This document shows positions 37,735 through 64,000 of a DNA stretch of 64,000 nt, in pieces. The DNA comes from a virus. Taxonomy: Duplodnaviria; Caudoviricetes. The DNA is taken from positions 1 through 64,000 of the IMG/VR virus record IMGVR_UViG_3300028048_000045; one strand, given 5' to 3'. Within the stretch, counting starts at the first letter, position 1; every line of letters starts with the position of its first letter. Under the pieces are notes generated by a model. It saw nothing but the letters and a program-made list of their open reading frames with translations. It was not told the DNA's origin and did no database searches. Made by a program: the position numbers and the translations under genes.

Positions 37735-37900
37735 AAATAAATTAAGCTCAAATTCTTTATCTTCAAATGGAATCGTGTAGTTTTCATAACTCTCCTTAGG
37801 ATTTAGTATACATCGTCGATGGTATTAGATCTTATGAGTTTAATTTGTTTTGATACCTTTAAATAAAACAGGTGCTGGGTAAAACCAGCACCTTCCTTTT
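37735..37900 (+). ncRNA. Candidate structured small RNA with antisense loop
   Basis: 12-bp outer stem (37739-37750/37835-37846), 17-bp inner stem with 4 G-U pairs (37797-37834), loop antisense to SD+AUG, terminator at 37871-37900. Confidence 0.5.
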
Positions 37901-50488: not shown

Positions 50489-50600
50489 ACATTATAATAT
50501 ATTTACAATGTAAACTACATTGATGCAATAATTGTGAGTTATAGCATTAAATGTTTTGTAATATTACAATTTTTTTATTTTATCCTCCGGAGGACATTGT
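50489..50600 (+). promoter_or_regulatory. Late-type promoter plus structured leader of sheath gene
   Basis: ACAttataATATA, three hairpins and the palindrome tcctccggagga over the SD. Confidence 0.55.
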
Positions 50601-53830: not shown

Positions 53831-53866
53831 ATAAGTACTGGGATTCGTCCCAGTACTTATATTTTT
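53831..53866. terminator. Bidirectional terminator
   Basis: ataagtactggga-ttcg-tcccagtacttat. Confidence 0.8.
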
Positions 53867-54347
53867 AAAAAAGTTTTAAAGTTATTTTATAACAGTTAAT
53901 TCCTGTATTAACCATTGTATTGTGTACAGTAGAACCATCAGAAAGTTTATATCTTGAATTAGAAATGTTGTCTATTACCATAATAGCAAGTTTTCTAATC
54001 TTTTCAGGTTCATCATCTTTATAACGTTTGCTTAAAAGATCAAGATATTTATAAAGTTTGTTAGGTAAACGTTTTTTATAAATTTTATAATAATCAAAAA
54101 TTGATTTTCTTGGGAAATAATCTCCATTTTCATTTTTTCTTAACGAATTATAAAATTCGATGAAACTCATATGAACATCTTTTACACCATCTAACAGACT
54201 AAATTTTATATAAATATATTTTGTTTTCTTTATATTTTCAGTAACACGTAAATACTCATTACAAGTATCAGTTTTACTTATTTTTTGAATCTGTTCAATA
54301 ATATAATTAGCAATAATTTGTGCTTTGATTTTCTTAAAAATTTTCAT
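53865..54347 (-). CDS. Hypothetical basic protein
   Basis: 160 aa; AGGAGG RBS; late-type promoter at 54371-54383. Confidence 0.7.
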   Translation of the reverse strand: MKIFKKIKAQIIANYIIEQIQKISKTDTCNEYLRVTENIKKTKYIYIKFSLLDGVKDVHMSFIEFYNSLRKNENGDYFPRKSIFDYYKIYKKRLPNKLYKYLDLLSKRYKDDEPEKIRKLAIMVIDNISNSRYKLSDGSTVHNTMVNTGINCYKITLKLF

Positions 54348-54370
54348 TTCGGTAAATCCTCCTAAATATT

Positions 54371-62803: not shown

Positions 62804-63391
62804 ATGAAAATAAATAAAAATTCAGCTGCCGCTAAAGTTCCTTTTATAAAACCTAATGTTAATGTAATGTATCAGGTTGATTTTAAAAGAGATGATAGTA
62901 AACCTAAAGATCCTGAAACAAATATCCATAAATATGGATGTAACTTTATGTGTTGTTTAGCAGTACCTCAATTTATGAATAAGAAAAAATTATTACCTTC
63001 TCAAATAATCGATATTTATTTATATGCTAATAAAAGCGGATGGCTTGAATATGATTGTACAGTAATTAGTCCAAATGAAATTATGAATTATGCTGCACAA
63101 CTACTAGGTGATAAAAAATATAGATACTCTAATGTTTTTGTTAAAGGTATTGCTTCTGGTGCTGATTGGAACGTATCAAATTATCAACATACTAGCGATC
63201 TTCCTGGAAATGGAAATATTTATTTCTTTATTGTAGATTTCTTAACAGGTAGTACTGGTAATTATGGTGGGCACCATTTTGAACTATATAACTCGATTGG
63301 TACACTTATGTACGATCCAGCTAATTGTACAGTACATAAATACAAAGGTGTAGATAAAATTTCTTGTTATAAAGTTTCTTTTAAAAAATAG
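62804..63391 (+). CDS. DUF261-like / papain-like (C39-type) protein
   Basis: YQ...IHKYGCNFMCCL...HHF...YDP; start MKINK behind GGAG; late-type promoter at 62773-62785. Confidence 0.55.
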   Translation: MKINKNSAAAKVPFIKPNVNVMYQVDFKRDDSKPKDPETNIHKYGCNFMCCLAVPQFMNKKKLLPSQIIDIYLYANKSGWLEYDCTVISPNEIMNYAAQLLGDKKYRYSNVFVKGIASGADWNVSNYQHTSDLPGNGNIYFFIVDFLTGSTGNYGGHHFELYNSIGTLMYDPANCTVHKYKGVDKISCYKVSFKK

Positions 63392-63415
63392 ATATTTTTG
63401 ATTGAACATATAAAT

Positions 63416-63609
63416 ATACAAATTCACAAACCTGCATCCTGACGTCTTTTTGGTCTTTCAATTGTCATTTTTTTCATTTAAATCCTCCTATAAATTTTTT
63501 TGAAATTACCCATTGGTAAGAGTTTTCGTGAATTTTCTCTTATCGATGGCAAAAAGCTTTTAGTCTTTTTGATAAAGCGGGGCAGTTAATTCTGCCCCGT
63601 ATAATTTTT
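63416..63609 (+). ncRNA. Candidate late-promoter-driven antisense small RNA
   Basis: Promoter ACAtataaATATA (63406-63418); no plus-strand ORF; anti-SD/anti-AUG segment; G-U stem 63510-63549; terminator 63577-63609. Confidence 0.55.
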
Positions 63610-63656
63610 GTTCTGATGACAAAATGATATACTATAAATAAAAAGAGGTCATATTT

Positions 63657-64000
63657 ATGGCTAGTTCATATCAAGAAAATTTTAATCCTGATTCTACAGA
63701 TTTAAATTACAATTTAGGATTACATAATGTTGCTATTATAGATACCGAAACTGGTAAACCTATAGATATCACAAGTATTTCAGATTCTTTTAGACTTGCA
63801 AGAAATAAGAATGATGGAACTGTTTATAATAAATATAACATGGATTCTAATTTACTTGCAGGATTTATTGAAGATCCTGAAGAAGGTTTAAATGCAGTTT
63901 CTTGTGTAGAAGCTTTAGGTTTATATACAACTAGTTATATTAATGATAAAATAACTGGTAAAGATTCCGTATTACAAAAATCGATTAATAGTGATCCTAC
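63657..64000 (+). CDS. Partial late gene (runs off window)
   Basis: MASSYQENFNP... open to the end; GAGG RBS; promoter ACAaaatgATATA at 63619-63631. Confidence 0.75.
   Translation, partial: MASSYQENFNPDSTDLNYNLGLHNVAIIDTETGKPIDITSISDSFRLARNKNDGTVYNKYNMDSNLLAGFIEDPEEGLNAVSCVEALGLYTTSYINDKITGKDSVLQKSINSDP

Follow-up and report, generated by a model that had tools for sequence, protein, structure and literature searches.

A conserved late non-coding RNA with a predicted anti-Shine-Dalgarno seed in an AR9-like jumbo phage

Background

The c4 RNA of phages P1 and P7 is a phage antisense RNA of temperate phages that pairs in trans with phage translation-initiation regions, its targets being dedicated ones. 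In Firmicutes, RsaE/RoxS and related C-rich sRNAs carry an unpaired C-rich motif that has been proposed to bind the G-rich Shine-Dalgarno (SD) sequences of many mRNAs, blocking the initiation complex (PMC6158497). In phage T4, early mRNAs are inactivated at GGAG-type SD sequences by RegB, an S1-activated endoribonuclease that is active very early and turns ribosomes to later transcripts, while late GGAG mRNAs resist by virtue of their context (PMC3014915). The sRNAs of lytic jumbo phages are barely characterised: dRNA-seq of phiKZ led to the prediction of one sRNA, unconfirmed, and any sRNAs were expected to be late (PMC8244752). How these phages shut down early translation, and what role their small RNAs play, is largely open.

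The element described here is a concrete late jumbo-phage RNA with comparative support. Like RsaE/RoxS, it is a candidate trans-acting sRNA with an unpaired SD-binding seed. [quoted passage not shown] Its proposed purpose is that of T4 RegB, but here a late RNA would cover the SD sites by pairing with them, and the late genes avoid GGAGG; regB itself (PF10715) was not found in this genome. In contrast to c4, no dedicated, covarying target was found for the RNA, and it has no Rfam match.

Results

A stand-alone late transcription unit

The window, that is the whole stretch of 64,000 nucleotides analysed, is the first 64 kb of a 276-kb virus record with 29% G+C. The source is an AR9-like 276-kb uncultured jumbo phage (genome G000): its sheath and tube proteins match phiKZ-like families, the nearest relatives of its RNA polymerase gene at 177393-178892 are in AR9/PBS1-like Bacillus phages and phiR1-37, and the AR9 counterpart of that gene is g270, the N-terminal subunit of non-virion beta'. 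Sequence near-identical to the phage is contained in bovine-gut runs. The RNA element sits between a late gene at 62804-63391 and a 704-aa late gene starting at 63657, and the following features were assigned:

54353-54364, minus strand: RBS of a 160-aa gene, matching the seed over 12 nt and rejected as a conserved target
62804-63391, plus strand: upstream late gene, DUF261/C39-peptidase-like, without a terminator of its own here
63405-63418, plus strand: AR9-type late promoter AACA-N6-TA (ACA-N5-ATATA), from motif statistics, conservation and the AR9 consensus
63416-63609, plus strand: predicted non-coding RNA of about 194 nt, from homologs, model and contigs
63420-63427, plus strand: P1 5' strand AAAUUCAC, invariant in 8/8 sequences, probably pairing with the P2 loop (pseudoknot)
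63424-63477, minus strand: 17-aa ORF whose frame is not conserved, not a gene
63428-63467, plus strand: hypervariable, dispensable single-stranded segment, 27% mean identity, almost absent in homolog L010
63468-63477, plus strand: U-run and CAU, complementary to AUG followed by A-rich codons, CAU in 7/8 sequences tested
63479-63491, plus strand: anti-SD seed with core UCCUCCUA at 63483-63490, 92% conserved, predicted unpaired
63510-63549, plus strand: P2 hairpin, a 13-bp stem with 4 compensatory pairs and an almost unchanging 14-nt loop that contains the P1 3' strand (63528-63535)
63550-63571, plus strand: P3 hairpin of 7 bp, with one compensatory A-U to U-A change in homolog L022
63577-63609, plus strand: terminator-like hairpin and conserved tail, 6/8 pairs compensatory, stem only 57% identical
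63619-63631, plus strand: late promoter of the downstream 704-aa gene (start 63657), past the terminator

A perfect ACA-N5-ATATA promoter, which the sequence-only reading had placed at 63406-63418, is present there. Genome-wide the motif has 64 copies, of which 52 fall in the 10% of the genome that is free of called ORFs. Of these, 47 point at a gene start and three stand ahead of short or uncalled ORFs; the remaining two, at the head of a tRNA cluster and at the RNA element, are true orphans. ACA-N5-ATATA is thus the phage's own promoter motif. In AR9 the final base of the late promoter consensus AACA-N6-TA/G is +1 (PMC5312081), and the RNA is accordingly predicted to start at 63416. Its length is 171-195 nt in the close homologs and 209 nt in the distant homolog L012. 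The description of some 190 nt free of plus-strand ORFs between promoter and terminator was borne out, no plus-strand ORF of at least 40 aa being found across the element, and the GC-rich terminator described at 63577-63609 resolved into a hairpin (63577-63600) and a U-rich tail. The U tract begins 4 nt past the stem, which is atypical; terminator-like sites numbered 2 in 1.4 kb versus 0.3 +/- 0.5 in shuffles. At the sequence level the element is thereby an independent transcription unit, with promoter and terminator and without an ORF, and it is very probably a real plus-strand RNA. It is not the leader of the 704-aa gene, since that gene has its separate late promoter.

Four RNA-labelled runs were compared as contigs, which carry no strand or start. 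A 154-nt contig lies at 63427-63580 in run X3 and another of 154 nt at 63430-63581 in run X4 (probably DNA), where it is the only close match in 1.5 kb; a contig of run X1 ends at 63580, and both X1 and X3 also cover the flanking genes. Run X5 yielded no contig over the element and is uninformative either way. The contigs of three studies thus end at 63580-63581, where a GC-rich hairpin alone can end contigs; the ends fit the predicted RNA body and give a weak hint of it.

Conservation and structure of the RNA

Homologs were collected via the upstream protein and DNA patterns, which gave, counting the present one, eight full-length sequences that differ from each other, as well as a partial sequence and a distant pair (L012/L014). 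The late promoter, the anti-SD core (CUCCU), the 13-bp hairpin and the terminator are kept across the eight close sequences, L017 having CACUCCU in place of CCUCCU. Identity to five divergent homologs was high in P1 (63420-63427, 100%), the P2 loop (99%), the promoter (96%, changes confined to the spacer), the terminator tail (94%) and the seed (92%), and low in the terminator stem (57%) and in 63428-63467 (27%). Conservation is limited to the first five of these parts, and the linkers drift.

The plus strand folds with z=-4.8 and the minus strand with z=-2.4 against shuffles. Covariation in related phages, which the sequence-only reading had named as a check, was found: 98% of 287 pair cells in the alignment are paired, and 11 pairs are compensatory with both sides changed, a count that was reached in 0/500 shuffles (slid controls, 0-3). 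RNAalifold recovered the same three hairpins, so that the element has a conserved RNA structure with covariation, and G-U cells (17) versus A-C cells (5) in the alignment favour the plus strand. In P2 (63510-63522/63537-63549) 98% of the cells are paired and one U-G pair is invariant; the two G-U pairs described for this stem are there, but it is favoured on the plus strand rather than restricted to it. The 7-bp hairpin described behind it was located at 63550-63556/63565-63571.

The octamer AAAUUCAC at the 5' end is perfectly complementary to GUGAAUUU, which lies in the P2 loop, a match overlooked by the first reading. The chance of a match of this type is 0.14% for random segments of these lengths and 2.5% for same-letter shuffles. 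The pairing is extended to 10 bp in L017, and in L012/L014 a different 9-bp complementary pair takes the role of P1, where it could also form a plain stem. Because P1 is invariant in the close homologs, we infer its pairing without backing from covariation; only L017 and the distant L012 support it. A pseudoknot is possible, since P1 is free of overlap with P2; judged from the sequence, P1 and the P2 loop probably form one, closing a loop of about 60-83 nt that would expose the seed. The seed is predicted to be unpaired with or without P1.

With the RNA model from the close set, L012 and L014 scored 44-47 bits. The distant homologs (L012:712-995 and L014:1313-1596) show three anti-SD-like stretches in an open loop and a longer 5' stem, and their architecture may differ from that of the close family. 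The more distant phages L015 and L016 have only a hairpin at the locus of the RNA. RNA model R1 found a single copy in G000 and had no match in AR9 or in 74 viral loci with the same terminator-flank pattern. Rfam covariance models gave no family at gathering score (best overlap L20_leader, 19 bits versus a cut-off of 58.7, E=0.9), blastn against cultured phages returned only short RBS-like chance matches, and no paper on the RNA came up in literature searches. The family is narrow, has one copy per genome and is confined to its own clade; it is a real, undescribed RNA family, the mechanism of which is testable and still a proposal.

The anti-SD seed and the search for single targets

The 5' part of the RNA had been read as the reverse complement of a translation start, and the minus strand indeed reads AGGAGG, 6 nt, ATG and 17 codons. 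The seed has a predicted unpaired probability of 0.94 here and 0.48-0.98 in the homologs, which makes it a conserved, unpaired SD-complementary segment by prediction. CAU lies at a spacing from the seed that varies between 4 and 14 nt and is absent in L017. The conserved feature is complementarity to a strong start of generic form, namely an SD, an AUG at variable spacing and A-rich codons, while the 40 nt spelling 'MTIERPKRRQDAGL' are nearly deleted in L010. The RNA probably acts through its anti-SD seed.

A single mRNA complementary to all of 63420-63492, as had been suggested, was not found, the phage containing no long perfect match, and the search for a complementary gene in 185,579 GTDB genomes returned no exact 30-nt target. 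The 12-mer said to be complementary to the RBS of the gene starting at 54347 does match at 54353-54364 and is unique in the 276-kb genome; as a conserved target that gene was rejected, the match being broken in L010, in G002 and also in L018, whose seed is identical. No phage gene stands out as a conserved target, and the sequences point to GGAGG-type ribosome sites as a class, rather than one mRNA, as what would be targeted.

Genome-wide bias in GGAGG

Among late-promoter genes 3/45 have GGAGG in the SD, against 61/196 of all other genes (p=6e-4); among genes that bear an AT-rich motif of the early type it is about half (p from 2e-6 to 1e-4 over four motif definitions). Gene classes were assigned by motifs, and because the first early-promoter pattern was ad hoc, the reported test is late genes versus all others, together with four alternative early motifs. 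The classes do not differ in mean SD length (p=0.14). The other SD registers used by the late-promoter genes are AAGGAG[A/U] and AGAGGU. The late-gene exceptions that carry GGAGG are the gene at 54347 (best 12-mer), the gene at 260765, sheath and tube. In the minus-strand run 175276-184281 that includes non-virion beta', 6/8 genes carry GGAGG, the beta' gene itself being without it. The bias recurs in relative G002 (0/12 late versus 8/20 others, p=0.014) and in the short loci L038-L040, orthologs not being independent cases. AR9 has no late-gene GGAGG bias (23/67 versus 59/215, p=0.28, with a looser motif), and it is AR9 that is also without an RNA model match. The SD bias is a correlation, and other causes are possible.

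The leader of the sheath gene (about 50580-50600, plus strand) holds its SD inside the self-complementary TCCTCCGGAGGA, which is kept in G002; it is possible that TCCTCCGGAGGA is a cis anti-SD that tunes sheath translation or shields sheath from the sRNA.

Proposed mechanism and alternative explanations

Comparison of sequences shows the promoter class, conservation, covariation, peptide loss and SD bias; expression, strand, pseudoknot, mRNA pairing and repression are what we infer. Since the phage late genes avoid GGAGG, the RNA probably switches off early phage (perhaps host) messages, and it may well be, although this is held tentatively, that a late, stable, trans-acting sRNA silences the GGAGG class of early phage mRNAs. 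The non-virion RNA polymerase would start at 63416 and stop at the hairpin near 63605. Pairing of the 5' end with the P2 loop would then hide the 5' end and hold a loop of about 60-83 nt, in which UCCUCCUA and the U-run/CAU would remain single-stranded. The seed would pair with GGAGG(A)-type SD sites, and with A-rich starts where these fit, so that 30S loading would be blocked. Late-promoter genes with other SD registers would escape, while early and continuously expressed genes that carry GGAGG, including the non-virion RNA polymerase beta' operon, would be hit. Early translation would be damped in the late phase and ribosomes freed for late genes; host mRNAs with a GGAGG SD would also be repressed. 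The trans-acting sRNA that silences an mRNA through its RBS, as first conceived, thus survives in its stand-alone late-promoter RNA, exposed anti-RBS seed and covariation, and not in its single dedicated mRNA. A wider version is doubtful: the early-to-late switch of this jumbo-phage clade would depend in part on a two-part code in which early mRNAs carry GGAGG and late ones avoid it, the entire GGAGG class, of phage and host, being silenced by a late, pseudoknotted RNA that resembles the anti-SD tail of 16S rRNA. If true, the element would be a counterpart of T4 RegB made of RNA alone, and a brake on translation that is SD-selective and programmable; the SD sequence would be a temporal address in the phage genome, and an RNA could replace the RegB nuclease. 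The sharp prediction is that the RNA represses GGAGG reporters and spares AAGGAGA reporters.

Other target assignments were weighed against silencing of the phage GGAGG class. The selected targets of the same anti-SD sRNA could be host mRNAs, with GGAGG avoidance in late genes as self-protection, a reading that is compatible with the phage-class model and is given a small but appreciable probability. The seed complement is a textbook bacterial start, AGGAGG-AUG-AAA-AAA starts being typical of exported proteins, GGAGG occurs in merely 3/14 phage genes starting ATGAAAA, and the lack of a standout phage gene also fits; the GTDB genomes, on the other hand, offered no exact target, and the variable spacing together with the loss of CAU in L017 argues against one fixed host start. 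It is improbable that the RNA is gene-specific, its variable segment pairing with the mRNA of G000 gene 232990 (plus strand, 148 aa) or 177374 (minus strand, 225 aa). These two gave the best duplexes among 241 starts (-37.3 and -36.9 kcal/mol, respectively), the best value for shuffled guides being -32.7 +/- 2.1 kcal/mol and 1/60 of them attaining the real best. Neither was upheld as a dedicated target: the significance is marginal, the duplexes lean on the hypervariable segment, which is near-absent in L010, and covariation is missing. The L008 guide gave -28 with the 177374 ortholog of the same sample and coverage (L040) versus -34 with the G000 copy, and the N-terminus of the 148-aa family is retained across differing guides.

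Explanations that dispense with mRNA pairing in trans, or with an RNA altogether, were judged on the same evidence. A structured RNA might act via a protein, for example as a decoy or scaffold for an RNA-sensing defence of the host or for ribosomal protein S1, in which case the C/U-rich loop and the invariant P2 loop would be protein sites. The invariant unpaired residues (P2 loop, GAUAAA, tail) do exceed what a simple antisense RNA needs; this reading leaves the exact SD-plus-AUG complement and the late-gene avoidance of GGAGG unexplained and is considered unlikely. As the upstream DUF261-like gene is here without its own terminator, its mRNA probably extends through the RNA element, and in the relatives without the RNA (L015, L016) a hairpin follows immediately after the stop of that gene. 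The element could from this be a cis-acting 3' UTR that stabilises the DUF261-like mRNA or folds back onto its RBS, which is highly improbable given the conserved internal late promoter, an upstream RBS that in homologs pairs poorly with the seed (-9.8 to -14.5 kcal/mol) and the two contigs that begin at 63427-63430. A minus-strand gene for the 17-aa peptide is hardly credible and largely refuted. It would have a strong SD at 6-nt spacing, but in homologs the ORF has 5-25 aa or is frame-shifted, it is absent in L017, and it has 6 aa in the near-identical L002. With neither length nor frame conserved it is not a gene, the small-protein test revealing no conserved reading frame, and both G-U polarity and promoter indicate the plus strand. 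Silencing in trans through the seed is the reading retained.

Other features of the locus and genome

Invariant TTGATA (63569-63574) and TATAAT (63600-63605), 25 nt apart, flank the freely varying terminator stem; a sigma-70 promoter was ruled out, a 25-nt spacer being too long. The upstream DUF261-like late protein contains Cys and His motifs, its Atlas neighbours belong to C39 peptidase families, and it is probably a virion cysteine peptidase. No relative of its gene was found in GTDB genomes, and DUF261, a family present in Borrelia, is only a lead to the host. The minus-strand gene at 53865-54347 encodes a basic, fast-evolving 160-aa late protein and is inserted between tube and tape measure; L015 has neither this gene nor, at its locus, the RNA. 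A structured 3' region after the helicase gene (37735-37900, plus strand) comprises an outer stem, an open loop and a terminator. It was rejected as a paralog of the RNA, having no late promoter and no R1 match; its anti-AUG is lost in the close relatives L045-L047, and at greater distance the region is rearranged in L048/L049 and absent in L050/L052/L054.

Elsewhere in G000, the 225-aa gene that follows non-virion RNA polymerase beta' (176697-177374, minus strand; L034:6697-7374) has no family match and many database variants that are 85-98% identical. A GC-rich structured intergenic island lies at about 185990-186300 (minus strand). The tRNA cluster at 205860-206915 (minus strand) stands under an orphan late promoter and contains extra tRNA-like and structured stretches uncalled by ARAGORN. 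Two ORFs (238689-240959; L041:13689-15959) share the coding sequence of the anaerobic ribonucleotide reductase NrdD, the second of which has a weak intein-like match.
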